DNA of 64,000 nucleotides, taken from Candidatus Woesebacteria bacterium. Its GTDB lineage: Bacteria > Patescibacteriota > Microgenomatia > UBA8517. Position numbers and translations under genes: made by a program. The first letter of the stretch is position 1, and every line of letters starts with the position of its first letter. Below, one piece after another: positions 6,191-56,809 of this stretch. The notes under the pieces were generated by a model. The model saw only the letters and a program-made list of their open reading frames with translations, made no database searches and was not told the origin of the DNA. Location of the stretch: NCBI GenBank assembly GCA_016926185.1, contig JAFGPD010000010.1, positions 1,444 to 65,443 of the forward strand, given 5' to 3'.

Positions 6191-6469
6191 ATGGATGATG
6201 TAAAGAAAATGTTTCAAAAAATTGTGAATGGCCAGAGCGCCATGAAACAAGAGATACTTAAAGGAATTAAAAAAGTAGAGGATAAACTAACAAGCAGAAT
6301 AGACGGACTTGAAAAGAAAACTGAAAAAGGATTCAAAGAAGTTAATAGCCGTTTAGATAAACAAGGAAAATCCTTAGCTTATCTGGAGGATGATGCTCCA
6401 ACGGTTGAGGAATTTGATAAGCTGGAAAAAAGAGTTGCCAAGATTGAGCAAAAAGTGCTTCACGCTTGA
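6191..6469 (+). CDS. Small coiled-coil protein, paralog B
   Basis: 92 aa; MFQKIVNGQSAMKQ...LAYLEDDAPTVEEFDKLE...KVLHA shared with paralog A. Confidence 0.55.
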   Translation: MDDVKKMFQKIVNGQSAMKQEILKGIKKVEDKLTSRIDGLEKKTEKGFKEVNSRLDKQGKSLAYLEDDAPTVEEFDKLEKRVAKIEQKVLHA

Positions 6470-8356: not shown

Positions 8357-10705
8357 ATGTACTTAATGACAGATCTGAAGAATTTTTTCTCTAAATTCAA
8401 AACGAATAAAAAGCTGAAATATATTCTTATTTTCTATTGCGTAATTATTGTTTCCTTCCTCTTTTACAAAGCACTGAACGCCGATTTTAACTTTAATTTA
8501 GGAAAGATCGATGACTGGCAATTCACTCCTGATGTGACTTCTTCACTTTATGATCTTGATATAGGTAAATTTATGCGCAATTTGTCGGTTGTACAGTTTT
8601 TTGTGCTTATTGTTCTTCATTTTCTATATGCTCTTATACCGATAAACATTTTTTATCTGAATTATCGTTTTTTTGGATTTATTGTACGCAGGTTCAGAAA
8701 AGAGCTTAAATTCGGCAGCCGAAAGAATGTTGGCAGATCTATTCTTCTGCTTATTTTGGGAATTTTATCTGCCGGTGCCACAGTTTACTTATCTATACAA
8801 AGCAATTGGATCCTGCCTCCTGTTTTGGGTGCGGCAGTAATAGTATTAGCGTTAACACTTATTTATATAATCGTTTCCTCAATTTTATTGATTGTTAGAA
8901 CACTGAACATAATTTACAGAAAGCTGGCTAATAAATCCCTTTTTGGCATGAAGAGGAAATGGCTGTGGAACTTTAGTAGTGTAGTATCTGTATTGCTAAT
9001 ATTGGTGTGGGTGGGATTAAATATATGGGAAATATTTTTCGGGATTGATCTTTTCAGTGCTACAAATATCACTCCGGTTGGTGGTGGTCTAACGTCGATG
9101 AGCGCACCCTCATTCGGTTCATCTACAGGTACTTTCAATCTATCGCCTGATAGTGCACTCATGCCGTCAGGGGGAGGAGGATTTAGCGGTAGAACCTCTG
9201 ACAATATAGGCTTTTCTACAGGAGGAGCGAAGGATATAAATAACTTCAGGGAAAATATTAAAAATAAATACTTACCGCTTTTTACCGACGTGACTTATGA
9301 GGGACTTTTCTATGATTATTATTTTGATACTGGTCAGCAAGAGGAATGTGCTGAGCTTTTTTGTCCGTCGTATAGTTATGCACAATCTGCCGATCCGCTG
9401 TCAGGAGAGCCGCAATATTTCCTTTCGGTCGGCCTAAATTCCGGCATTAAACAATCTGATTTCCAAAGAAAGAAGCTCAATCTTGTTATTGTGATGGATA
9501 TTTCCGGCTCTATGAGCTCGAGTTTTAATAGATATTACTACGATCGTAAAACTAACGAATATGATGCTGAAGAGGAAAGTAAAAGCAAGATGCAGGTTGC
9601 GAATGAATCGGTTGTTGCGTTGCTTGATCATTTAAATCCTCAGGACAGGTACGGAATGGTATTGTTTGACGGCAGTGCTTATCTGGCTAAACCACTGAGG
9701 CTTTTAGATACAACAGACCTGGAAAGTATAAAGGGTCACATTCTTGAGATATCTCCGCAGGGTTCTACGAACATGGAGGCGGGATATAAACTCGGTACTG
9801 AGGTTATTGAAGAATACTTGGATATAGACCCCGAGGAATATGAGAATAGGATAATCTTTTTGACCGATGCACAGCCCAACACCGGTGTTTTAAGCGAGGA
9901 AGGATTGGTAGGACTATCTCTAAATAATGCAGATAGGGGAATCTATACTACATTTATCGGGATCGGAGTGGATTTTAATACCGAGCTTATTGAAGCAATG
10001 ACAAAGATAAAGGGTGCCAATTACTATTCTATTCACTCTGCTTCTGACTTTAAGTACAGAATGGATGAAGGTTTTGACTATATGGTCACACCTTTGGTTT
10101 TTGATCTTGTTTTAAAGCTTGATAGTCCTGGGTTTACTATTGATAAGGTATATGGATCTCCGGAGGCGAATCTGGCAACTGGGGAGATAATGAGAGTTAA
10201 TACCTTATTCCCATCTGATAGCACATCGGAAGGTGTTAAGGGAGGAATTGTTCTTCTGAAATTATCTAAAAATACTGATTCGGCTGAGGAAGTGAGTTTG
10301 GAGGTTTCATACGAGGATCGATTGGGTCAGCTGCACAATAATGAAAAGAAAGCAAATATAACAGTTATGGACAGCGATTATTATCCCAATACTGGTGTAC
10401 GAAAAGCAATATTGCTGACACGCTATGCAAATCTTTTGAAAAATTGGATACAAGATCAAAGATCAATATCTCAGCAAAACACTACTTATACAGAACCCTG
10501 TGTAAGTTCTGAGAGTGGTATTATTATTCCGGTTGAGAGAGAATTAAGTCGGTGGGAGAGAACTTCAGTTCCTTTAAAGGTAATGCCCGAATACAGGGAC
10601 TTCTTTTTTACATTTAATAATTACTTCGTTCAGGAAATGCAATATTTGCAGGATCAGGATCTTGAACGGGAGGTGCAGGTTTTTGATCTTTTAATTAACA
10701 ATTAA
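8357..10705 (+). CDS. Multi-TM membrane protein with Gly/Ser-rich linker and von Willebrand factor A (vWA) domain
   Basis: Several N-terminal hydrophobic helices; Gly-rich segment containing GTFNLSP; vWA MIDAS-like LNLVIVMDISGSMSS and later FLTDAQPNTG. Confidence 0.6.
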   Translation: MYLMTDLKNFFSKFKTNKKLKYILIFYCVIIVSFLFYKALNADFNFNLGKIDDWQFTPDVTSSLYDLDIGKFMRNLSVVQFFVLIVLHFLYALIPINIFYLNYRFFGFIVRRFRKELKFGSRKNVGRSILLLILGILSAGATVYLSIQSNWILPPVLGAAVIVLALTLIYIIVSSILLIVRTLNIIYRKLANKSLFGMKRKWLWNFSSVVSVLLILVWVGLNIWEIFFGIDLFSATNITPVGGGLTSMSAPSFGSSTGTFNLSPDSALMPSGGGGFSGRTSDNIGFSTGGAKDINNFRENIKNKYLPLFTDVTYEGLFYDYYFDTGQQEECAELFCPSYSYAQSADPLSGEPQYFLSVGLNSGIKQSDFQRKKLNLVIVMDISGSMSSSFNRYYYDRKTNEYDAEEESKSKMQVANESVVALLDHLNPQDRYGMVLFDGSAYLAKPLRLLDTTDLESIKGHILEISPQGSTNMEAGYKLGTEVIEEYLDIDPEEYENRIIFLTDAQPNTGVLSEEGLVGLSLNNADRGIYTTFIGIGVDFNTELIEAMTKIKGANYYSIHSASDFKYRMDEGFDYMVTPLVFDLVLKLDSPGFTIDKVYGSPEANLATGEIMRVNTLFPSDSTSEGVKGGIVLLKLSKNTDSAEEVSLEVSYEDRLGQLHNNEKKANITVMDSDYYPNTGVRKAILLTRYANLLKNWIQDQRSISQQNTTYTEPCVSSESGIIIPVERELSRWERTSVPLKVMPEYRDFFFTFNNYFVQEMQYLQDQDLEREVQVFDLLINN

Positions 10706-15796: not shown

Positions 15797-16348
15797 TTAT
15801 TTTGGTGAAGAAATCTCTTTAATATCAAAATTAGACAATTTATTCAAAAATGAATAAAAAGCCAATGAAGGAAGTGAAATTAGCCAGAAAATCACTAGAA
15901 TTATTCTGATCGTATTAGCCCCTTCCGGTGCTTGCGGGAAGAAAGTGCTGACCAAAGCTGCGACCAGAAGGACAGTTATAAGAATGATTCGTAACTTTAA
16001 CTTGTTGAACTTTTGTACGTTTCTAAAAAGTTTTTTTGTCAGAGGTTTTAATATAGAGCTGATAACATATAGAGGTGTAGTGATCCATAAATAAGCTTTT
16101 ATAATATCATTTTCATCAGCTTCAAAAGTATCAGGTATACCAAAAAAATTGAAAATATTTGCAAATCTACTGAAGTCGCCATCTCCTGATAGATTGACAA
16201 CAAAGACAATGATGAATGCGAAGGAGATTAAGATAGATGCTGTCAATATATTAAATGATAAATAACTGATCAAAAGCTGAAATGCCCTAAGAATTACAGG
16301 TGCGAAATGGCTTTGTGAGTAAGTTGGTACTTTTTTGATCGTCGACAT
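15797..16348 (-). CDS. Hypothetical integral membrane protein
   Basis: 183 aa with 4-5 hydrophobic helices; convergent with the upstream gene. Confidence 0.35.
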   Translation of the reverse strand: MSTIKKVPTYSQSHFAPVILRAFQLLISYLSFNILTASILISFAFIIVFVVNLSGDGDFSRFANIFNFFGIPDTFEADENDIIKAYLWITTPLYVISSILKPLTKKLFRNVQKFNKLKLRIILITVLLVAALVSTFFPQAPEGANTIRIILVIFWLISLPSLAFYSFLNKLSNFDIKEISSPK

Positions 16349-19335: not shown

Positions 19336-20514
19336 TCAGAGGTGTTCGAGTGAAAGCTGTGCTGGTTGGAAGTTTTTATTATAATAAATCGCTTTTTCGA
19401 ATTCCTGCCTTGCAGCCTCAATCCTTCCTTGTTTAAGATATATTTCACCTCTAATTTGGTAAAATTCTGAAAAAGCACGGTTTCCATTGTTTAAAATATT
19501 TTCTATCCTTGGCAAAAGCTCAACATACCTGCCTAGTTTTTGATATGCCAGAAGTGGTTCTATCTGATACCATAAAGTTCTGAATGGAAGTTTGCTTTCC
19601 ACTTTTTCAAAAATTTCTATAGACTTTTGACAATCTCCTATTTCGTAATAGGCAACAGATAGTGAAAATTGTAAATATTTATCCTCGGGATTTTTTACAG
19701 CTTCTTTTTTCAGATATTCTACGGCATTTTGCCAAGCGATCATTTCATCTATATTTTCTCCGATTATTGATCCAACCAGCTTTTCTTGACCGGGTTTAAC
19801 CAAAACCAGATATTCAAATCCGTACGGCTTCCAAAGCTGCAAGAATTCATCGTAATCATATTTTAAACCCTTGCCTTGCAGGGAATCATTTTGTATCAAA
19901 TAACCTCTTTTATCATTGTATCCATAGACAACACGGAAATGGCCAATATCTTCATTGGTTTTGGTCAAGGTCCTTGTAATGACAGGTATGTTATTTGCAA
20001 CAAATTTCTTAACGATCTCAATAGTACCAACAGGTCTATGAAAGGGGATAAAGCCGAAGTCTTTTGATTTTTCAGCTAGTTCTGCAAGGGTTACAGATTT
20101 GTCGTCGTTGTCCCCATTTGGTATTTGATAAGGGCGCAGTTCGTCCCCGAGAGCTTTTTGACTTACATTAATACAATAGAAAGAAAGTGCCATCGATAGT
20201 GATGCGGGACCGCAGTTGTTGAAAGTCTGAAAGCTATGCGAGCCTCCTTTTATCTGATAGCTTTCTGGTATCACCCCATATAAAGGAATGGGTGAAGATG
20301 TGATAGCTGATGATTGAAAATTACTTGATGTGAGATCAACAATTTTTTCAAAATTTGAGTAATTTAATCTAACAATTTGATTGTCTTTATAAACATGGAG
20401 GAAGAATGAAAAAAGCACCAGAATAATAAAAGTCATCCCAATTGTCAGTAATTCTTTTTTGTTTTTCTTATCTTTTGTTTTTAGATTATTAAATTCTCTC
20501 AATATTTCGGCCAT
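19336..20514 (-). CDS. C39-like cysteine peptidase domain protein with C-terminal TPR repeats, N-terminal TM anchor
   Basis: FQTFNNCGPASLSMALSFY (Peptidase_C39_2-like catalytic Cys region); TPR-like helical repeats at the C-terminus. Confidence 0.55.
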   Translation of the reverse strand: MAEILREFNNLKTKDKKNKKELLTIGMTFIILVLFSFFLHVYKDNQIVRLNYSNFEKIVDLTSSNFQSSAITSSPIPLYGVIPESYQIKGGSHSFQTFNNCGPASLSMALSFYCINVSQKALGDELRPYQIPNGDNDDKSVTLAELAEKSKDFGFIPFHRPVGTIEIVKKFVANNIPVITRTLTKTNEDIGHFRVVYGYNDKRGYLIQNDSLQGKGLKYDYDEFLQLWKPYGFEYLVLVKPGQEKLVGSIIGENIDEMIAWQNAVEYLKKEAVKNPEDKYLQFSLSVAYYEIGDCQKSIEIFEKVESKLPFRTLWYQIEPLLAYQKLGRYVELLPRIENILNNGNRAFSEFYQIRGEIYLKQGRIEAARQEFEKAIYYNKNFQPAQLSLEHL

Positions 20515-28616: not shown

Positions 28617-31600
28617 TTATTTCTTTCTTCTTTTATTTTTAAAGTGGATTAGTATAAAGACTAGTACACCGCCACCGAGTAGTACAACATTTGCAATTAC
28701 GAAAAGTGCTAATCCTGAAAAAGTCGGGGTAGAAGTTGTCCCCAGACTGCCTGAAGGTGATAGGTTAAATGTGCCAGCACTATCGAAATCACTAACTGGT
28801 GCCGACTTTTCTGCGATCCCAAGAGAGCCAAACATTTGAATACCACCACCTGATAGGGGGTTAGACATAATCCCTTCAGGAGTCAGATTAATGGTTTGTC
28901 CTTGTCCTCTAGTTTCGGCTCTGGGTGTTGTCTCATCCCTATATCTGTCTAAATTCTCAGACAGGCTTTCTAAGGTATTAAGCTGGAATTCATTTACTAG
29001 TGCGATCAAAGATGAGTGTGGACCCACAATTGAATTGTTTTTGGAAAAATCGTTGAAGTTGTCTAAAAAGGCTACCTGAGTATTAAGGTTAGCTTTGGTT
29101 GTTGAATACAAGCCTTTTAGGAATTTACTAGCAAATAAATATGACACTAAGTCGCCAGTACTGGTTGTTTTGATTTCGTTCCAGCCGGCCAAGTTATACA
29201 TGTTTGGAGAACCAGAGTCAGTATAGTAGCTGAAATATTCACCCGAAGCCACTAGCTTTTTACCATCAACCTCTACCTTTTCAGCATCAATTATTGCGCT
29301 ATTTAAAGCAGCTGTGAAATTGTCAAACGAAGAACCTCCGCTTTGCAGAATGTCTGTAGTAATGTTTGTAGTATAGGGAGGAATGGTCTCGCCGTGTACT
29401 ACATAAAGCGAGACATCTTTGTTTAGCCTTGTTGTATTATTGGAGGCGGGCTGTTGCGAGTCGGTTATAAGTATTACAAAATCATAATCACTTTTCTCCA
29501 GCTTGTTATAGGAATTTATCCAATTACCTATCCCAAAGTAGTTGATACTAAGATCTTTATCTAAATTATCTTTTTCAAGCTTTTTAGGTTCAGATATTAG
29601 GTCATTGAATTTAACCAGGTAAACGTCGTTATCTTCAATTAGTTGACTGTTGTGGAGCATATCAACTGCTTTTTCAATTTGTTTATTCTCCTTATTTGCA
29701 TAGGATACATCTGCTGCTATTGCGATCTTCAGACCGCTTGCAATATCTGTTAAGGAAAGTTCATTTTTATTATCACACTCGACGTTTTTACCAGAACTTG
29801 CGATCTTTGTATTGGGTACAAGATAAGCGCTGTATGAAGCAAAATTGTTTTGTAGCTGAATGTCATTTTGGAGACTGCACAGTTTTTTACCAAGTTCTTC
29901 ATAATTATTGTCCTGAATGTAATTATCTTCGACCAAAGCAACCTTTCCATCAACTCTTACTTCTTCCAAAACTTCTTTTGTCTTGATATTTTCCTCTTTT
30001 GTATATACCGGAAGGGGGTAGCCATCAGGTTCGACGGGCGTGATATATGTAAATTTAATTCTTTGATTTCTGCCGTTGAGTATCGTACGATTGTTTTTCG
30101 AAGGCACAGGATAAACTCGCAGTCTGTATTGTGTTGGTCCGGTTTGCTCCAGAAGTGCCGGATCACGTCTTCTGACGATCTGTCTTTCATAAGTTTCCTG
30201 AGCGGCACCCTTTGGCGCTATTACACCGGTGAATTCAAGATTGGGACCCAGCAGTAACTCCGTAACAACAGCGTCCTCAGGAAGAGAGAATTCATATATT
30301 ACTTCCTGATCACTGAAGGCCGAGTTAGTATATACCTCGTCAATACTGACTTTTACTATCAATCCTTCGTTTGAGGTTTCTACATTAATATCCCTTGAGA
30401 AAAGCTCGACGTTTTTTGCCGAACTGACATTTCTTGCGGTTTTGTAAGTTTCGCCAAAAAGATAATTATAAGCATTTCGGGCTTCGTAATTTCGGTCAAG
30501 ACTTCCCTGATAAACAAAAGGATAAGCCAAAGTTGTGAATGAATCGTGAATTATTTCAGCACCCAATCCTTCTATCCCGAAAACCTCTTCGTATGCATCT
30601 TTGATGAAATCATCATCTTTGGCCATTAAGTATCTGCGTCTGACGTTTGTTAGATTATCGAAGGCTCTTTTGATCTGATCTTCTTTATCAAGAAGCCCCA
30701 TCGCTATCTCTTCTTTTTCCTCAAAGGTTTCTGCCTCATGTAGATCTTCCAACAGGTTGATATATCTGTCGGCACTGGGCTGATAGGAAACACCGAATAC
30801 TAGTGCAAACCAGACGAAGGCAAATATATAAAGATATTTTTTGACATTTACCGCCCCGATCTTTTCCGAAACCTCTTTGGCTGATCTTTTAAATATCTTT
30901 GCAAGAGAGTAGGTCAGAAGATATGGAGCTGAGGTTAACGCTAGTGCAAGAGCTATCCCCATCCCTCCAAAAGTTATTGCGATCAAGATACCAAAAGGGT
31001 TAAATCTTCGATATGAAGAAACTGTCGCTTCAACAATGTCATATGAGATGTATTCATAAACTATTTTTGAAAGTGTTCCTAGGACAAGGGGAGTGAAGTA
31101 GGTGAATAACAAAGTTATATAAAAAGAAGTAAGAAATAGAGATTCTCTCAGAAAAAGCACGATATAGTTATATTTCTCTGATTTGAATGTGATCTTCATC
31201 AGATTGATTAAAAACACAGGTATAGCAAAGATAAACATCAGCAGAAGAAACCAGACAAAGGGACTGGGGGTAGAGAAAACGTTTGCACATACTATAGAGA
31301 TAAATACAAGCGGGACTTCGAAAAGCAAAAAAAGTTTGGCAAGTTTTTCCGGTGTTATCTTCTCTTTGTACTTAATGACGATAAATGAAGTGACAAAGGG
31401 AGTAAATCCTGCGATAAGCAAAAATGCCAATCTTGCCAGACCGATATTTTTGACAGTTTCGATGATGTTTCCGTCCGTAACTGCGCTGAAATTTATATTG
31501 GTAATAAAACTAAAGATTATTAAAAGAAAAATTGCATTGTATCCCCAAAATACTAGGTTCACGATGAACTTTCCCGCTTCGCTTGGAAGCTTGAGCTCAT

Positions 31601-32000
31601 CTTCTTTCACTGAGTATTTAGGTTTTTTCTTATCTCTTTTATCTAAGTAGTCGAGGAGTTCATAGTCGATTTTTGGACTTTTTTTATTATCAATCTCCGG
31701 TTTTCTATCAGAAGAATCTTTAAGTTTTTCGATTAGAACTTCACGAGCGATCTTTTCGGCGATCGGGGAGAATGTGTCGGGGGTTACTTCATTCTTATCT
31801 CTCATTAATCGGATCTCTCCGCTTTTTGCATCCACAACTACGTCCACGGTTTTGGTTTCGGCTGGATAGAGTTTGTGATACTCACTTAGGACTTTGTCGT
31901 GGATCTCTGAGACTATTGTGGAGTATGAAACACCCTTTTGTGTTACAAGATCTGCTAAATTTGCAAACTCGCTTTTTTCCATAGAACTTTGACTATACAT
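28617..32000 (-). CDS. Giant (1127 aa) polytopic membrane protein with a large extracytoplasmic domain and a C-terminal Gly-rich motif + TM + basic tail
   Basis: About 10 hydrophobic helices in the N-terminal third; C-terminus ...GTFNLSPSGSLGTTSTPTFSGLALFVIANVVLLGGGVLVFILIHFKNKRRKK. Confidence 0.5.
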   Translation of the reverse strand: MYSQSSMEKSEFANLADLVTQKGVSYSTIVSEIHDKVLSEYHKLYPAETKTVDVVVDAKSGEIRLMRDKNEVTPDTFSPIAEKIAREVLIEKLKDSSDRKPEIDNKKSPKIDYELLDYLDKRDKKKPKYSVKEDELKLPSEAGKFIVNLVFWGYNAIFLLIIFSFITNINFSAVTDGNIIETVKNIGLARLAFLLIAGFTPFVTSFIVIKYKEKITPEKLAKLFLLFEVPLVFISIVCANVFSTPSPFVWFLLLMFIFAIPVFLINLMKITFKSEKYNYIVLFLRESLFLTSFYITLLFTYFTPLVLGTLSKIVYEYISYDIVEATVSSYRRFNPFGILIAITFGGMGIALALALTSAPYLLTYSLAKIFKRSAKEVSEKIGAVNVKKYLYIFAFVWFALVFGVSYQPSADRYINLLEDLHEAETFEEKEEIAMGLLDKEDQIKRAFDNLTNVRRRYLMAKDDDFIKDAYEEVFGIEGLGAEIIHDSFTTLAYPFVYQGSLDRNYEARNAYNYLFGETYKTARNVSSAKNVELFSRDINVETSNEGLIVKVSIDEVYTNSAFSDQEVIYEFSLPEDAVVTELLLGPNLEFTGVIAPKGAAQETYERQIVRRRDPALLEQTGPTQYRLRVYPVPSKNNRTILNGRNQRIKFTYITPVEPDGYPLPVYTKEENIKTKEVLEEVRVDGKVALVEDNYIQDNNYEELGKKLCSLQNDIQLQNNFASYSAYLVPNTKIASSGKNVECDNKNELSLTDIASGLKIAIAADVSYANKENKQIEKAVDMLHNSQLIEDNDVYLVKFNDLISEPKKLEKDNLDKDLSINYFGIGNWINSYNKLEKSDYDFVILITDSQQPASNNTTRLNKDVSLYVVHGETIPPYTTNITTDILQSGGSSFDNFTAALNSAIIDAEKVEVDGKKLVASGEYFSYYTDSGSPNMYNLAGWNEIKTTSTGDLVSYLFASKFLKGLYSTTKANLNTQVAFLDNFNDFSKNNSIVGPHSSLIALVNEFQLNTLESLSENLDRYRDETTPRAETRGQGQTINLTPEGIMSNPLSGGGIQMFGSLGIAEKSAPVSDFDSAGTFNLSPSGSLGTTSTPTFSGLALFVIANVVLLGGGVLVFILIHFKNKRRKK

Positions 32001-40697: not shown

Positions 40698-41555
40698 ATG
40701 GTTATTAAAATTGCCCCCTGGAAGGGTAGGACAAATATGACGATTGAGAAAAGGTATAAAGATGATACCGGATCGTGGAACACCGTTAATGAAAAAGCCG
40801 AAAGCTTAAAAAAGTTCATAAGGAAAACATTGCTTACAATATTTCTGTTGTCTCTTGTTACTTTTGTTTTCCTTGTGTCATTCAACCCCCCTTTGCCCCA
40901 AAAGGATGTAATATTAGATAAGATAATTCATCAGGAACCCTATCAAAATAAGGAAATTATCGAGCAGCAGATAATTACAAAGGGTGATTATAGATATAAA
41001 GTAATACCGCAATATTCCTACGAGCTTTATGGTCTTGTTGTTTCGCAGTACAATAGCGAAAATTTTTTAGACGTTAGACACAAGAAAGACCCTGCCCAGA
41101 TCAAGGACTTGTGTGTTGTGTGGGGGGACAATATTGTAAGTGGTATTTATAAGGACATTGAGTACAAAAGTGGAGAATTCACTTGCTATGCGAAACCAAA
41201 AGAAGGTGTTGATTGGAGCGCATTTTCTATGCAAAATTTGTCCAATAATCATTTAGTTCCCGCTGATGATGAAATTGCAGACAAAATCAGAAAAGCCAAT
41301 ATTGCTGATCAGGTCTACATAAAGGGTTATTTATCAAGTTACGAGATCTATGATATTAATGGTGATCTCATTTCAAGCAGGGGAACCAGTATCAAAAGAG
41401 AGGATAGTGGTAATGGTGCTTGTGAAACAATTTTTGTTACCGATTTTGAAATTTTAAAAGGAAAAAACTACCTATATAGATATGTTCGTGACATTTCCGG
41501 AATTACAGCGGTGTTTTCATTTTTAGCCTTAGCTGTGGTTATATTGTTTCTATAA
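40698..41555 (+). CDS. Hypothetical membrane protein (TM near each terminus)
   Basis: 285 aa; alternative ATG at 40737. Confidence 0.4.
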   Translation: MVIKIAPWKGRTNMTIEKRYKDDTGSWNTVNEKAESLKKFIRKTLLTIFLLSLVTFVFLVSFNPPLPQKDVILDKIIHQEPYQNKEIIEQQIITKGDYRYKVIPQYSYELYGLVVSQYNSENFLDVRHKKDPAQIKDLCVVWGDNIVSGIYKDIEYKSGEFTCYAKPKEGVDWSAFSMQNLSNNHLVPADDEIADKIRKANIADQVYIKGYLSSYEIYDINGDLISSRGTSIKREDSGNGACETIFVTDFEILKGKNYLYRYVRDISGITAVFSFLALAVVILFL

Positions 41556-51598: not shown

Positions 51599-54500
51599 AT
51601 GGATGACAAAAGTAGAGACAACAATAACCACAGTGATGTGAACGATAATTTTGAATATAATCCTTCTGGATCTGTCGCGAGCGAAAACACCTCATCCGGA
51701 TTTTTCAAAAAAGCTTTTTTTGAAGGTAAGAACGAAATTTCAAAACTACTAATGCTTTTCAAAAATCTGAAAAACAAAAAATATCTGGTTGTATTATTAG
51801 TATTAATTCTATTTATTGGTTTAGTAGCATTAAAAAACCGACCTTCGAAGAAATCAATACAGGTACGGCAGGAAGAACAGGAAGAGATCACTTCAGAAGA
51901 TGATGGGTTTGAGAAAGTAGTTATCCCTGAACGCGAACAACCATTCTTCAAACTTGAAACGAAAGAAGTTAGGAGATTTGGAATATTGCCTGCAGAAGAT
52001 TTTGTGCTAAAGACCATTGAGCCCGTGACAGCTTCGTATATTAGATCAGTGATCGAAGATCCGGAAAATTTTAGTATTGAAGAAACTGGTGACAAAGAAA
52101 TTACGATAAAGAACCGGAACGCTCTTGATCTGGATGAGCCGATATCTATAGTATTAAACACTCAAGGTCAGCAATTGGGTGGCTATACTTTTGACCGTAA
52201 TTATAGTTGGGCTTTTCAGGCGCAGGGTAAATTTGCAGTAGCATCAACTGTTCCAGGAAACGAAAAAACGCAGGTGCCTGTGAATACAGGAATAGAAATA
52301 ACGTTTAATCAGGATGATTTTAAAGATCCTGTCAGATTAATTCAAATTGAACCTGAAATCCAATTCAGATCTCAGATCATTGATGAGACCTTTGTTGTTA
52401 TTCCCGATAAACCTTTAGATCACGAAACTGTATACACTGTCAGATTAAAAAGTGGTTTGAGACTCAATTCAAGAGACGACCAAATAAGCGAGGATTATGA
52501 ATTTTCTTTTCAGACTGAGGAAAAGAAAGAGCTTTCAAAACCCAAACCCTGGATCTCCATCCATAATAATTTTGTCCAGTCTTCTCCAACGGAGCCTTTT
52601 ATCACTAGGGTAAGTACAGCGAATTGGAATAATGATATTAAAGTAAATATAAAGGTTTATCAGTTTGGGAATGCTTCGGAGTTTGTAAGCTCAAGGGAGG
52701 AATACGATGAAGCAGTTCGCGATTGGCAGGTATATTACCCGAATAGGTATAAATTTTCGGAAGGACTGGGAGAGGTATTAAATGAAGATGTCAGCGTGCA
52801 GGAGGAAGAACAAATTCAATATATCCAATTGTCCAAAAATCTTGACCCTGGATACTATCTGATGGAATTTAGGGTAGAGGGAGAACTAGTATCTAATCAA
52901 GTATGGTATCAATCCTCAGAAATAGCAGGTTTCATTTCTTTGGGAAGAGATGATATTATCGTTTGGGCTAATAATTTAGCTTCAAAGTCAGCTATCAACG
53001 GAGCGCTTGTCAGGAGTATATCAACCGGAGGAACTTGGATCACAAATGCTGACGGTGTTGCCAAGTTTCCATCAGCGCTAGAATATTTCGATGAAGATAA
53101 CGATTACTTTGAGATATCTGATGCAGCAGGTAATTCTGTGGTCTTGCCGGTCGAGTCGCAAAAAGGAAACACCGGTCCGGGTGAGACTTCCGCTGATGAT
53201 TTCTGGTCTTATCTTTACACAGAAAAAATATATTATCTAAGTAACGACACTGTAAATATCTGGGGTGTGATCAAGGATAGAGATACAGGTGTTGTGCCCA
53301 ATGCAAGATTGGTTTTGTTTCATTCAGAAGAAATATATTCCGAGCCCCTAAGTCCATCAAGTGATGGTTCTTTTATCACCAAATTTCCGCTCAATGATGC
53401 TCCGGAGGGTTGGTATCAGCTTCAATTGAAAGTAGGAGATACTACAGTCGAGCAGTTAAGCTTCACGGTCAGACAGTATGTAAAACCTGACATGAAGATC
53501 GAAATAAGCTCCGACAAAAAAGCGATCTTTACAGATGAAGAGGTCAAATTTGAGGTAAAAACATCATTTTTCGATGAAACTCCCGGTGCAAATATCGACC
53601 TTAATGTCCATGAATACCAATCAGGTAAAAAGACAACCTCGAAAACCGATGATAATGGTGTTATTGAATACACTTACAGACCCAGCTATAAACAAGGATA
53701 CTATTACCCGAGGTATGAAGGTATTTCAGCGATACCCGGGATCACTCAGGAAAGTATTGTTGAGGGCAGTGGCAGTGTTAGAGTTTTTGGTCCGAAGATC
53801 ATGATGACAACCGACAGGGATCAAGAATCTGATAAGGCTTCGTTCACTGCGACCTTTAATAAAGTTGATCTGACAGGTATCAACAGCGGAACAACCAATG
53901 ATCCCAAGGGAGATCCTGTCGGTGGTAAAGATATTAATGTATTGATTGAAGAACACTGGACAGAAAGAGTGGAAACAGGATTTACTTATAGTTTCATTGA
54001 GAAATTAACTTACAAAACCTACAAATATGAAAGAAAAACTGAAGAGAAAGAAAATTTAACCCTTACCACCGACAGCTTTGGTGAAATATCTCATAACTTT
54101 GATATGACAATTGGCCGCTCTTATACTGTAGAGATTTCTGTGAATGACGAAGACGGCAAAAAAGTTGAAAGAACTTTGTACTTCTATGCATCCAAGTGGG
54201 TCGGAAGTTACGGGTATTATGGTAGTAGCAGCGAGGACACAAACGTTTATATTGATCTGGCTTTTGGCAGAGATACAAATGTCTATTCAGTTGGGGAGGA
54301 TGTATATGTCAAATTGACCCAGCAGGGAGATGATTATAAAAAATTAGATGATGATAAGTTTCTTTTTACTAAATCTCAAAGGGGCAGACAAGATGCTTTT
54401 GTTGAGGATGTCCCGCAGTTTTCTTTCCAATTTTCGCAAAGTGATGTTCCTAACACTTTTGTGAGCGCGGTAGTTTTTAATGGAAGGATCTACAAACGTG

Positions 54501-56809
54501 CTGAAGGATATTGTCAAACAAATTGGGTATGCGGAGGAGGATGGGGATATTACCATTATTACTATAGCCATAATACCTTCAAGGGTATTTATATAACACA
54601 TAAAAAAGAGGATAGTGAACTTGATATAGAAATTAAAACAACAAAAGCAAAATACGAACCGGGTGAGCGAGTTGATATTCAGGCTATTGTCACCAAGGAT
54701 GGTAATCCTGCCGGGGGAGCTAGTGTGAATCTTGCTATGGTCGATGCCGCACTAGCAGCCATTGGCGGTGTACGTGAACCCAGTGTTTTAGCAAGCGTTC
54801 ATGAGGCGATACCTCACCAGATATACTACGTTTATACCACTCATGAGCCAATAATTCCTGATACTCCGGGAGCAGAAAAAGGCGGTGGTGGCGGTGATAG
54901 GGATAATTTCAAAGACACAGCAGCATTTTATCAGGCACAAACTGATGGTGAGGGAGTGGCTAATTTTAGCTTTGAACTTCCTGACAATATCACGACATGG
55001 ATAGTTTATATGCAGGCAATTAATGGCAATCTGCAAGCCGGTCAGTCTGAAAGCAGCATTATCGTGACAAAGGATTTCTTTGTAACGTCAAAGTTTCCGA
55101 AAAATATCTTAGTGGGCGATAGTGCTTTTATTAGTGCAAATAGCTTTGGTGTGGCACTTAATGAAAATAGCACTATCGATTACTCAGTATTATTTAACGA
55201 CGGAGGAAGTGAAATAGATAGTCAGCAGGCTCAAGAAAAAGCATTTGTAGAGAAAGATTTTAGAATACCAGAACTTGAAGAAGGAACTTATGATGTTATT
55301 GTCAGAGGTAAATACTCTGATATGAATGACGGTGTTCGCTTACCTCTGGAGGTGGTTAATTCAAGAATAAGACAAGAATATTCGGTAAAACACAATGTGG
55401 ATGAGGGCGGTGAACTAAGTGATCTAATTACAGACGATCATCTTGAGGACGAACCAATAATGTTGGTGGTATCAGATGAGGGGAAGGGAAAGTTTTTCTA
55501 CACCCTTAGGGATTATTGTTATAGAGGTTGGAGCAATAGGTTAGAGAAAAGAATTGTTTCAAAGAGATCAGATACTTTACTGCGTGACAAATTTGACTAT
55601 GAGGAATGCCGTATGATCGAACCGTTTTTCTCGGAATTTCAGGGTGCAGATGGCGGTTTGTCTCAAGTTGTCTGGGGAGGAAGTGTACTTGACACATCTC
55701 TTTGGGCAGTAATAGTTGCACCAGACGAATTTGACCAGGATAAATTGGTTAAATATTTTGATGATGTTTACGAAAACAGTCAAGGTGACAGACTGCACAA
55801 GATAAGGGCTGGATGGGCTTTATCGCTTTTGGGAGAAAGTAAATTAAGGGAGCTGAAAGCAATGATTCCTGCTGCTATTTCATTTGATGAAAAAGTATAT
55901 CTTGGGATCGCACTTGCACAGCTTGGTGATAGGGAGGTTGCTAGAGGTCTTTTTCTTGATATTCTTGCTGATTATGCATATGAGCTTCATCCATACATAA
56001 GAATTGATTCAACACAAGACAGGGGCGCCAGTTATGAAGATTTCGTTGTTGAGACAAGTAAGGCCCTTTTGCTTGGTGAACTTGTGGATGATAAATATAA
56101 CGATCGTATGTATGAATACATCGATAATTACAGAGGAACCTTGCAAAATTATTTGATAGATCTGAGTGACATTGAGTATATTGATAACGCAATTGCGACA
56201 CTACCGGATAGTGACACACAGTATAGTTTGACCACGACTGCAGGCACAATTTCAGAAACACTCGACAAGGGAAAGAGTGAGTGGTATGAGCTTACTTCTA
56301 ATGATATTGATCAATTTGAATTTTCTTTGGAAACCGGAAAAGCTGATCTATTGGCAAAGTATCTTATTGATATAGATGTATTAAAAACTAAGAGTCAAGA
56401 CAAACGGCTTTCGATCAAACGTACTATAACTGAGGCCAAAAATGACGATGGCGTGATAAGACCGGGAGATATTGTCAAAATAACTTTAGAGCTGACACTT
56501 GATCTTGATAATGCGCCGAAATGTTCGTATCAAATAAAAGATTCGCTTCCTTCCGGTTTGACATATTTAAGCAGTCCTGGCAGTTTTGGTTTTAAAGATG
56601 CCTATTATGCAAGGGAAACTACCGGAAATACGATTGTGTTTAACACTTATAGCTCAAAATGGATATTCAAAGAAGGCAAGCAAGTTATAAATTATTATGC
56701 GAAAGCTTCGGCTGTTGGAGAATACAGAGCAGAACCGGCAGTCTTCCAATCGCTCAAGGAACTCACGGTCTTTTCGATGACAGATGAGGGAACTGTAGTG
56801 GTAGAATAG
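51599..56809 (+). CDS. Alpha-2-macroglobulin-family giant surface protein (1736 aa), membrane-anchored, apparently thioester-less
   Basis: N-terminal TM; LPDNITTWIVYMQAINGNLQAGQSESSIIVTKDFFVTSKFPKNILVGDSAF aligns by eye with the A2M-domain PDTITEW...FFV region; no CxEQ found (FQGADGGLSQ where GCGEQ would be expected). Confidence 0.55.
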   Translation: MDDKSRDNNNHSDVNDNFEYNPSGSVASENTSSGFFKKAFFEGKNEISKLLMLFKNLKNKKYLVVLLVLILFIGLVALKNRPSKKSIQVRQEEQEEITSEDDGFEKVVIPEREQPFFKLETKEVRRFGILPAEDFVLKTIEPVTASYIRSVIEDPENFSIEETGDKEITIKNRNALDLDEPISIVLNTQGQQLGGYTFDRNYSWAFQAQGKFAVASTVPGNEKTQVPVNTGIEITFNQDDFKDPVRLIQIEPEIQFRSQIIDETFVVIPDKPLDHETVYTVRLKSGLRLNSRDDQISEDYEFSFQTEEKKELSKPKPWISIHNNFVQSSPTEPFITRVSTANWNNDIKVNIKVYQFGNASEFVSSREEYDEAVRDWQVYYPNRYKFSEGLGEVLNEDVSVQEEEQIQYIQLSKNLDPGYYLMEFRVEGELVSNQVWYQSSEIAGFISLGRDDIIVWANNLASKSAINGALVRSISTGGTWITNADGVAKFPSALEYFDEDNDYFEISDAAGNSVVLPVESQKGNTGPGETSADDFWSYLYTEKIYYLSNDTVNIWGVIKDRDTGVVPNARLVLFHSEEIYSEPLSPSSDGSFITKFPLNDAPEGWYQLQLKVGDTTVEQLSFTVRQYVKPDMKIEISSDKKAIFTDEEVKFEVKTSFFDETPGANIDLNVHEYQSGKKTTSKTDDNGVIEYTYRPSYKQGYYYPRYEGISAIPGITQESIVEGSGSVRVFGPKIMMTTDRDQESDKASFTATFNKVDLTGINSGTTNDPKGDPVGGKDINVLIEEHWTERVETGFTYSFIEKLTYKTYKYERKTEEKENLTLTTDSFGEISHNFDMTIGRSYTVEISVNDEDGKKVERTLYFYASKWVGSYGYYGSSSEDTNVYIDLAFGRDTNVYSVGEDVYVKLTQQGDDYKKLDDDKFLFTKSQRGRQDAFVEDVPQFSFQFSQSDVPNTFVSAVVFNGRIYKRAEGYCQTNWVCGGGWGYYHYYYSHNTFKGIYITHKKEDSELDIEIKTTKAKYEPGERVDIQAIVTKDGNPAGGASVNLAMVDAALAAIGGVREPSVLASVHEAIPHQIYYVYTTHEPIIPDTPGAEKGGGGGDRDNFKDTAAFYQAQTDGEGVANFSFELPDNITTWIVYMQAINGNLQAGQSESSIIVTKDFFVTSKFPKNILVGDSAFISANSFGVALNENSTIDYSVLFNDGGSEIDSQQAQEKAFVEKDFRIPELEEGTYDVIVRGKYSDMNDGVRLPLEVVNSRIRQEYSVKHNVDEGGELSDLITDDHLEDEPIMLVVSDEGKGKFFYTLRDYCYRGWSNRLEKRIVSKRSDTLLRDKFDYEECRMIEPFFSEFQGADGGLSQVVWGGSVLDTSLWAVIVAPDEFDQDKLVKYFDDVYENSQGDRLHKIRAGWALSLLGESKLRELKAMIPAAISFDEKVYLGIALAQLGDREVARGLFLDILADYAYELHPYIRIDSTQDRGASYEDFVVETSKALLLGELVDDKYNDRMYEYIDNYRGTLQNYLIDLSDIEYIDNAIATLPDSDTQYSLTTTAGTISETLDKGKSEWYELTSNDIDQFEFSLETGKADLLAKYLIDIDVLKTKSQDKRLSIKRTITEAKNDDGVIRPGDIVKITLELTLDLDNAPKCSYQIKDSLPSGLTYLSSPGSFGFKDAYYARETTGNTIVFNTYSSKWIFKEGKQVINYYAKASAVGEYRAEPAVFQSLKELTVFSMTDEGTVVVE

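Follow-up and report, generated by a model that had tools for sequence, protein, structure and literature searches.

The locus described here raises the question of whether a short peptide shared by two large membrane proteins is part of a C-terminal sorting signal. It lies in a 64,000-nucleotide stretch of DNA from a Candidatus Woesebacteria bacterium (assembly GCA_016926185.1, contig JAFGPD010000010.1, positions 1,444 to 65,443, here termed the window), which encodes a 782-residue membrane protein with a vWA domain and a 1127-residue membrane protein, termed the giant in the following, both of which contain the heptapeptide GTFNLSP. A preliminary description of the window, made from the sequence alone, had noted that in the giant this motif is followed by a transmembrane (TM) helix and a basic tail, had likened the arrangement to the sorting signals of sortases and exosortases and had proposed that the motif might be a shared processing or attachment site. 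Our analysis separates the two parts of this arrangement. Helix and basic tail of the giant appear to descend from a PEP-CTERM signal that its relatives retain, whereas the heptapeptide is neither a conserved sorting motif nor a recognition motif and has no sorting role.

The origin of the tail is best approached from the family of the giant. In comparisons with NCBIfam models, the protein aligns to positions 9-879 of the 922 positions of the TIGR02921 profile with an E-value of 1.1e-50 and a score of 172.7 bits (cut-off 200), and this alignment ends before the PEP-CTERM part of the model. Scores of 160 and 233.9 bits were obtained for two relatives from bacteria of the candidate phyla radiation (CPR), L003 and L009, respectively. 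Altogether, searches with the giant identified 12 close homologues and 427 clusters at E<=1e-30. In their description of PEP-CTERM proteins, Haft et al. (2006; PMC1569441) mention as an exception a family of three integral membrane proteins, which we take to be TIGR02921 from the name of the NCBIfam model rather than from the paper. On TIGR02921 itself, on exosortases in Patescibacteria and on PEP-CTERM in CPR bacteria, we found nothing relevant in the literature.

Based on hydropathy and the positive-inside rule, the giant is predicted to begin with a cytoplasmic segment (residues 1-144), which is followed by seven helices, a segment of 695 residues located on the outside, the last helix and a cytoplasmic basic tail. 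The AlphaFold2 model of the protein, for which the underlying alignment was shallow (12 sequences), has a mean predicted local distance difference test score (pLDDT) of 74, with values of 80-94 in the ectodomain, mostly 70-90 in the seven-helix bundle and 30-48 in the last helix. The ectodomain resembles inter-alpha-inhibitor heavy chain 1 (ITIH1, PDB 6fpy), with a Foldseek E-value of 1e-12 over about 620 columns. The cytoplasmic part contains a NusA-N-like module, which is related to the NusA structures 1k0r and 2mt4 in profile searches of the PDB (E=6e-7) and to 2mt4 in Foldseek (TM-score 0.51). This head is specific to the CPR-type branch of the family defined below, PEP-type relatives matching only from profile position ~115. 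The N-terminal domain of NusA is known to bind RNA polymerase, and its fusion to a surface protein with seven TM helices is an odd combination.

We then compared the C-terminus of the giant with those of its relatives, using one genome per species and reading each homologue to its stop codon. The resulting 80 loci split cleanly into a PEP-type and a CPR Microgenomates-type. Homologues of the first type, which originate from Cyanobacteria, Chloroflexota, an alphaproteobacterium, Owenweeksia and a Magasanikbacteria bin, end in the pattern ...DRFxREVExGxDxLTxPxNPLNxxSVPEP-helix-(K/R)n and thus in a canonical PEP-CTERM signal, located at the position of the last helix of the giant. Such an ending was seen in true TIGR02921 members from 60 loci. 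Six PEP-type members that were scanned match TIGR02921 with 408-1106 bits, with alignments reaching profile positions 920-921 in five of them and 910 in L052, and L053 also matches the PEP_CTERM model TIGR02595 with 22.7 bits (cut-off 16). In line with this division, the cluster representatives that match only from profile position ~115 end in VPEP(E/H)EW.

Homologues of the second type come from Woese-, Gottesman-, Ames- and Shapirobacteria and others, and include bins titled 'Gammaproteobacteria'. In all of the ~70 full-length CPR-type cluster representatives and in 20 CPR loci the PEP motif is absent, and the giant itself contains neither PEP in its sequence nor a match to TIGR02595. In its place, the CPR-type homologues carry an extended linker of low complexity followed by a helix and a Lys/Arg tail, with the representatives also sharing the NusA-like head. 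Between the conserved PYSSLIALV block and the last helix, the median distance is 89 residues in non-PEP compared to 45 residues in PEP-CTERM homologues. The helix of the CPR-type tails conforms to a conserved pattern L-F-I-x-x-N-x-x-L-x-G-x-G, with Leu found in 43/69, Phe in 48/69, Ile in 41/69, Asn in 43/68 and the two Gly in 34/69 and 53/69 tails, and a Lys/Arg cluster follows the helix in all of them. Judged from sequence and position in the alignment, helix and basic tail of the giant would be derived from the PEP-CTERM signal of its relatives, and in this evolutionary sense the likeness to a sorting signal that had been proposed for the giant appears correct for helix and tail; it does not extend to GTFNLSP. 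As a separate observation, CPR-type giants with a NusA-like head and a non-PEP tail are found in records of 'uncultured Gammaproteobacteria' or 'Pseudomonadales' (L004, L006, L010, L012, L015, L017, L018 and L021), which are probably mislabelled bins.

The two types also differ in the genes next to them. In 13 PEP-type loci, all of them non-cyanobacterial, the TIGR02921 homologue is adjoined by a gene for an exosortase O of ~506 residues (L020, L025, L028, L045, L058, L059, L063, L069, L071, L072, L074, L080 and L081). These loci belong to Chloroflexota, an alphaproteobacterium and a bin labelled as Candidatus Magasanikbacteria; no adjacent exosortase O is present in the cyanobacterial PEP-type loci. 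The five neighboring enzymes that were scanned match TIGR04489 with 305-358 bits (cut-off 250), and the enzyme carries the exosortase motifs, which comprise a Cys (DIPCSGLKS) and the motifs N-x-x-R and H-x-x-x-G (as described in PMC1569441). Because of this adjacency, the TIGR02921 protein looks like a dedicated substrate of its own exosortase in the lineages of these 13 loci.

No comparable partner was detected for the CPR-type giants. A hidden Markov model (HMM) built from the 13 exosortase O enzymes and searched against the six-frame translation of 460 kb, covering the window and 22 CPR-type loci, gave a best hit of 8.2 bits (E=0.2). Among 30 open reading frames (ORFs) of the window that were scanned singly, none matches an exosortase, sortase or rhomboid family of Pfam, and a sortase TLxTC-like motif is absent from all window ORFs. 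For 43 polytopic membrane ORFs flanking the giants, the 25 Pfam families listed of 38 include no exosortase, rhomboid or sortase. Across 23 CPR loci, the giants have no conserved neighbor that could serve as sorting enzyme, the best neighbor family occurring in 5 loci and a single Rce1/CPBP gene being confined to L018. The earlier observation that the window lacks a sorting enzyme is therefore borne out, and a co-occurring enzyme, which had been suggested as something to search for, was found neither in the window nor in the 22 related loci. The clade has lost both the PEP signature and the nearby enzyme. We also considered a membrane-anchored protein encoded within the window (19336-20514, minus strand), in which TPR repeats are joined to a papain-like C39-type peptidase domain. 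Peptidases of the C39 type cleave behind Gly-Gly. This candidate was rejected, since its gene is at least 8 kb away from both genes of interest and is not a conserved neighbor of the giants.

Does the tail in its present form still have the properties of a sorting signal? Its general layout is that of the tripartite class (PMC1569441, PMC3237569), with a helix at about residues 1097-1118 followed by HFKNKRRKK and the stop codon. Directly in front of the helix, at the outer membrane interface, 69 aligned CPR-type tails show no conserved signature, their pre-helix columns exhibiting at most a weak preference for Ser and Gly. When ten tails were compared with NCBIfam at E<=10, no sorting-domain model reached its cut-off; the best scores were 12.7 bits for LPXTG_anchor (cut-off 15.9) and 9.1 bits for Loki-CTERM (cut-off 19.9), and neither PEP-CTERM nor GlyGly-CTERM was matched. 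An HMM of the tail, applied to 475 ORFs of 23 CPR loci, recovered the giants alone, at 22-41 bits with the next match at 9 bits. No other protein with the tail of the giant was found in the window or the 22 related loci, nor was one that combines motif, helix and basic tail, as the preliminary description had suggested to look for.

We favor an interpretation, to which we assign a probability of roughly 60%, in which the Microgenomates-type giant is no longer processed by an exosortase and its former signal helix persists as a second anchor in the membrane. The giant would represent a Candidatus Woesebacteria branch (CPR, Microgenomates-type) of the TIGR02921 family, with its NusA-N-like domain in the cytoplasm, seven helices crossing the membrane and a 695-residue ITIH-like ectodomain with VIT and vWA-like regions outside. 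From there, a disordered stalk of ~70 residues would lead to the last helix, with the Lys/Arg cluster keeping the C-terminus in the cytoplasm. Helix and basic cluster would be what evolution has left of a PEP-CTERM sorting signal, in a clade in which the PEP signature is gone, the linker preceding the helix has doubled and no exosortase is found nearby. The tail would stay uncleaved as a permanent second anchor, and the flexible stalk may let the ectodomain reach through the wall.

Several points weigh against this interpretation. The conserved Asn of the helix and its G-x-G motif indicate more constraint than a passive anchor would strictly need. Proteins with VIT and vWA domains are recurrent sorting substrates, and the families TIGR03788, TIGR04477 and TIGR04286 all match the VIT region of the giant. 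A processing enzyme that is not linked to its substrate is conceivable, our enzyme searches having covered the window and the related loci. Finally, the peptide shared by the two window proteins, which is discussed below, is still an outlier (P ~5e-4, top of 814 comparisons), and we are not comfortable with pure coincidence as its explanation.

Some of these points can be read in favor of an alternative that we consider unlikely, in which PEP-CTERM has given way in the CPR-type tail to a new, still functional sorting signal at the C-terminus, cleaved by an unlinked membrane enzyme. Its features would be the Gly/Ser-rich approach, the helix pattern L-F-I-x-x-N-x-x-L-x-G-x-G and the Lys/Arg cluster, its enzyme a rhomboid- or CPBP-type protease or a divergent archaeosortase, and its result the release or attachment of the ectodomain. 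Besides the conservation of the intramembrane Asn and G-x-G and the recurrence of VIT/vWA proteins as dedicated sorting substrates, this idea draws on the placement of the tail where relatives have a genuine sorting signal, on the fact that AlphaFold2 does not confidently pack the last helix (pLDDT 30-48) onto the seven-helix bundle and on the ITIH heavy chains as best structural match. Eukaryotic ITIH heavy chains are cleaved at their C-terminus and esterified to a glycan. Against it stand the lack of a conserved signature at the interface and of any known sorting-domain model above its cut-off, the restriction of the tail to the giant family and the finding of neither a conserved neighbor nor a candidate enzyme in 23 loci, as dedicated systems with a single target normally have their enzyme adjacent, as does exosortase O in the relatives. 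An extended version, slightly less probable still, would hold that PEP-CTERM was replaced instead of decayed, that an unlinked intramembrane enzyme releases the ectodomain or fixes it to the envelope in an ITIH-like manner and that stalk elements shared with the vWA protein mark a common handling of surface proteins in this organism.

This leads back to the heptapeptide. A six-frame translation of the whole window contains exactly two copies of GTFNLSP, one in each protein. A BLASTP comparison of the 782- and 1127-residue proteins as a single pair yields a single notable local alignment (17/36 identities, 29.3 bits, E=0.001), which spans from G(L/I)...SAP via GTFNLSP to FSG in both linkers, so that the shared motif within Gly/Ser-rich segments, as first noticed, and a wider SAP...FSG likeness are real. 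The copy in the vWA protein is internal and follows the N-terminal helices, as had been stated, being located 31 residues past the fifth TM helix by hydropathy and the positive-inside rule. Since it comes after a helix and not before one, a role as C-terminal sorting signal is excluded for this copy. In the giant, the C-terminus reads GTFNLSP-SGSLGTTSTPTFSG-LALFVIANVVLLGGGVLVFILIHF-KNKRRKK, which confirms the described order of motif, helix and KNKRRKK tail; however, the motif does not immediately precede the helix but is separated from it by a spacer of 14 residues (about 17 in the topology predicted from hydropathy). It resides in an unstructured stretch of the AlphaFold2 model (pLDDT 22-36), together with a second element of the stalk, INLTPEG (residues 1037-1043). 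In the predicted topologies, both copies of GTFNLSP are extracytoplasmic, juxtamembrane and embedded in Gly/Ser-rich linkers. Their codons are identical in 16/21 bases, with five differences at third positions, all synonymous; with 5/7 codons differing in this way, the peptides are neither part of a DNA repeat nor the product of a recent gene conversion.

The motif is not conserved in either family. GTFNLSP is absent from the other giant homologues examined (11 close ones and ~70 CPR-type cluster representatives), and none of the vWA homologues examined contains it; the closest of the latter, P0014, which shares 79% identity with the window protein, has AIDLAPP in its place within ...SNPSFGAIDLAPPTKFGG.... 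The preliminary description had named as refuting condition a motif confined to these two proteins in the absence of a candidate processing enzyme. By this condition, the proposal of a shared processing site fails within the regions examined, the window and 22 related loci, where no candidate enzyme was found. A database search with a profile of the two-sequence module returned two candidates and missed the two proteins of the window themselves, which makes it uninformative on other carriers. The only other database match with the heptapeptide in this search is a 47-residue fragment from a different sample (P0276, L085 208-351), whose GSSTGTFNLSP is an 11-mer identical to the vWA linker and whose C...PGH...GM pattern is cupredoxin-like by eye only. 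As this fragment shows, the peptide also occurs in other settings.

The motif had been noticed post hoc, and the significance of the sharing is borderline. When both linkers are shuffled, a shared exact 7-mer or longer occurs with P=2.5e-4 and a Smith-Waterman score of at least 63 with P=5e-4. The window pair also ranks at the top of 407 giant-by-vWA linker pairs, with a score of 63 compared to a maximum of 58 in 407 reversed controls. Conversely, 42% of window-wide shuffles give an exact 7-mer common to some pair of ~70 proteins. In comparisons of each giant with each vWA protein, the linkers have a mean score of 31.0 in forward and 31.2 in reversed direction (Wilcoxon p=0.72), while within the giant family the linker similarity is 52.7 forward and 37.6 reversed. 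Since forward and reversed similarities across families are equal, the resemblance of the linkers reflects composition and Gly runs and not a shared motif. This control removed a family-wide linker motif that we had seen by eye (N-[IL]-[ST]-P-x-G, SPxGxFxPLSN and GGGxxPLxAPxxG), with likenesses between samples such as P0006/P0017 and P0005/P0048, and for which shuffling alone had hinted at an enrichment, with 17% of pairs at p<=0.05. N-glycosylation sequons were likewise rejected as a common element, as they are neither conserved nor enriched in homologues, the frequency of N-x-S/T per residue being 0.0097 in linkers and 0.0107 in ectodomains. For a test of linkers from the same genome, vWA orthologues were sought within the loci of the giants and none was found there.

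We thus consider the sharing of GTFNLSP to be most likely a coincidence favored by composition, or at the very most a vestige of ancient lineage-specific exchange or convergence. That the block of ~36 residues (SAP...GTFNLSP...FSG) would instead be a real lineage-specific functional element of both stalks, serving as a glycosylation site, for docking to a common partner in the wall or on a host, or as the site of a shedding protease, with selection or an ancient exchange between the genes preserving its similarity in both, appears doubtful to us, and somewhat more so than a new sorting signal in either form. It would account for the low probabilities of the match given the linker composition (P ~2.5e-4 to 5e-4), for its rank as best of 407 cross-family pairs and above every reversed control, for a peptide that is identical despite five synonymous codon differences, for the extracytoplasmic, juxtamembrane location of both copies and for the observation that all four N-[IL]-[ST]-P elements of the two linkers are N-x-S/T sequons. 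These arguments are countered by the post hoc nature of the observation and the 42% chance of a common 7-mer in the window, by the vWA homologue that is 79% identical and lacks the motif, by sequons that are neither conserved nor enriched in the linkers of homologues, by the general lack of directional similarity between the linkers of the two families and by the recurrence of the heptapeptide, within an 11-mer, in the cupredoxin-like fragment of 47 residues. Least probable of all is a C-terminal helix that would be an eighth structural helix packed into the N-terminal membrane domain instead of a detachable signal, for which the giant being polytopic already and the conserved Asn and Gly as traces of helix-helix packing could be invoked, but which is at odds with the absence of confident packing in AlphaFold2 (30-48 compared to 70-90 in the bundle, from a shallow alignment of 12 sequences) and with the equivalent helix of relatives belonging to PEP-CTERM, adjoined by exosortase O in 13 loci.

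According to our results, a whole clade of CPR bacteria inherited a dedicated exosortase substrate and subsequently lost the PEP motif and the neighboring exosortase, while lengthening the stalk and adding a cytoplasmic NusA-like head. It offers a clean natural example of a sorting signal without adjacent enzyme, which may either have decayed to a plain anchor or have been taken over by another system. CPR bacteria have a lifestyle of attachment to other cells, and their means of displaying large adhesin-like proteins are, to our knowledge, poorly understood. A concrete profile of the tail is now available for phylogenetic profiling, and the heptapeptide does not qualify as a generalizable processing site.

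The 782-residue protein is unrelated to the giant and carries its own ectodomain on a Gly/Ser linker that is just as variable. Hydropathy and the positive-inside rule predict a cytoplasmic N-terminus, five N-terminal TM helices and an outside location from residue 228 onward, where the variable linker, an ITIH/YfbK-like vWA domain and a C-terminal domain follow each other. At residues 375-563 the protein matches the Pfam families VWA_2 (9.3e-11, 42.7 bits, cut-off 27) and VWA (4.1e-8, 34.1 bits, cut-off 23.8), and the D-x-S-x-S motif of the metal ion-dependent adhesion site is present as 'DISGS' within LVIVMDISGSMSS. Its closest sequences in the PDB are the vWA domains of ITIH4 and ITIH1 (1e-7 to 1e-6). 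More than 2800 homologues were found in CPR bacteria and DPANN archaea, with an identity of ~60% over the C-terminal two thirds. The Gly/Ser/Ala-rich linker between the last N-terminal helix and NIGFSTGGAKDINNFRENI is hypervariable and differs in every homologue. Before this linker, a conserved K(I/V)DDWQ(Y/F) element is found. CPR bacteria have ~60% of ectodomain residues in common with many DPANN archaea (homologues P0013-P0132), including Woesearchaeota, Nanohaloarchaeota, Altiarchaeota, Aenigmarchaeota, Micrarchaeota and Diapherotrites, which suggests that the ectodomain may have been shared between domains among ultra-small symbionts. The positions of all features in the two proteins are listed in Table 1.

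Table 1. Positions within the window of the two membrane proteins, their domains and the two copies of GTFNLSP.
Feature	Position	Strand	Residues	Basis and remarks
782-residue membrane vWA protein	8357..10705	+		ORF; vWA Pfam matches; topology
Variable Gly/Ser/Pro-rich linker of vWA protein	9038..9196	+	228-280	From fifth TM helix to conserved 'NIGFSTGGAKDINNFRENI' block
GTFNLSP copy 1 (vWA protein)	9128-9148	+	258-264	Six-frame search
1127-residue giant, CPR-type relative of TIGR02921 'PEP-CTERM integral membrane protein' family	28617..32000	-		NCBIfam match
NusA-N-like cytoplasmic module	31761..31961	-	about 14-80 (up to about 8-96)	Pfam NusA_N E=1.1e-5
Block of seven predicted TM helices	30789..31568	-	145-404	Hydropathy, positive-inside rule; AlphaFold2 helices
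VIT domain	30081..30392	-	537-640	Pfam VIT 1.1e-14
Disordered Gly/Ser/Thr-rich stalk	28716..28925	-	1026-1095	pLDDT 22-36, without secondary structure
GTFNLSP copy 2 (giant)	28755-28775	-	1076-1082	Six-frame search
C-terminal TM helix	28647..28712	-	about 1097-1118	LALFVIANVVLLGGGVLVFILI; hydropathy 2.76
Cytoplasmic polybasic tail HFKNKRRKK	28620..28646	-		6 Lys/Arg in 9 residues; stop codon 28617-28619

Elsewhere in the window, two small ORFs on the plus strand (1822-2121 and 6191-6469, encoding 99 and 92 residues) have identical runs such as FQKIVNGQSAMKQ and the end ...AYLEDDAPTVEEFDKLE... in common, as a local gene duplication ~4 kb apart. A 1736-residue alpha-2-macroglobulin-like protein (51599-56809, plus strand) with the domains A2M, MG2, bait region, bMG3 and bMG10 contains a single N-terminal helix, and a Memo-like gene comes after it. 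Two membrane ORFs do not match any Pfam family, one of 285 residues (40698-41555, plus strand) with an N-terminal helix and a helix at the extreme C-terminus that is devoid of a basic tail, and one of 183 residues (15797-16348, minus strand) with four predicted helices.

Among known systems, the closest to the giant is the pair of TIGR02921 and exosortase O (XrtO, TIGR04489), with clear homology that begins at the first TM helix and runs through the whole ectodomain and with the same order of multi-TM block, VIT domain, vWA-like region, linker, C-terminal helix and basic cluster. The giant differs from it by the lack of a PEP motif, a score below the cut-off, a linker that is about twice as long, the extra NusA-N-like domain and the absence of an adjacent exosortase O. 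More distant matches, restricted to the VIT region (E 3e-9 to 5e-7), relate it to the VIT protein of the XrtN system (TIGR04477), to MSEP-CTERM (TIGR04286) and to the marine proteobacterial sortase target (TIGR03788), which according to their family descriptions are large VIT/vWA surface proteins with a tripartite C-terminal signal. Here, the giant reaches 28-36 bits against cut-offs of 150-552 and has neither the signature motif nor the partner enzyme of these systems. With the substrates of rhombosortase, the GlyGly-CTERM proteins, it shares the glycine-rich approach, the C-terminal helix and the basic cluster (PMC3237569). In those proteins, a signal peptide is present and other TM helices are absent (PMC3237569). 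The giant, by contrast, has seven further TM helices and no match to TIGR03501, and no rhomboid was found in the window or among the flanking ORFs scanned from the CPR-type loci. Outside of sorting systems, both proteins resemble eukaryotic ITIH heavy chains, ITIH1 (6fpy) being the likest structure to the ectodomain of the giant and ITIH4 and ITIH1 the likest PDB sequences to the vWA domain of the 782-residue protein, with the difference that ITIH proteins are secreted and free of membrane domains, whereas both window proteins are predicted to be bound to the membrane.

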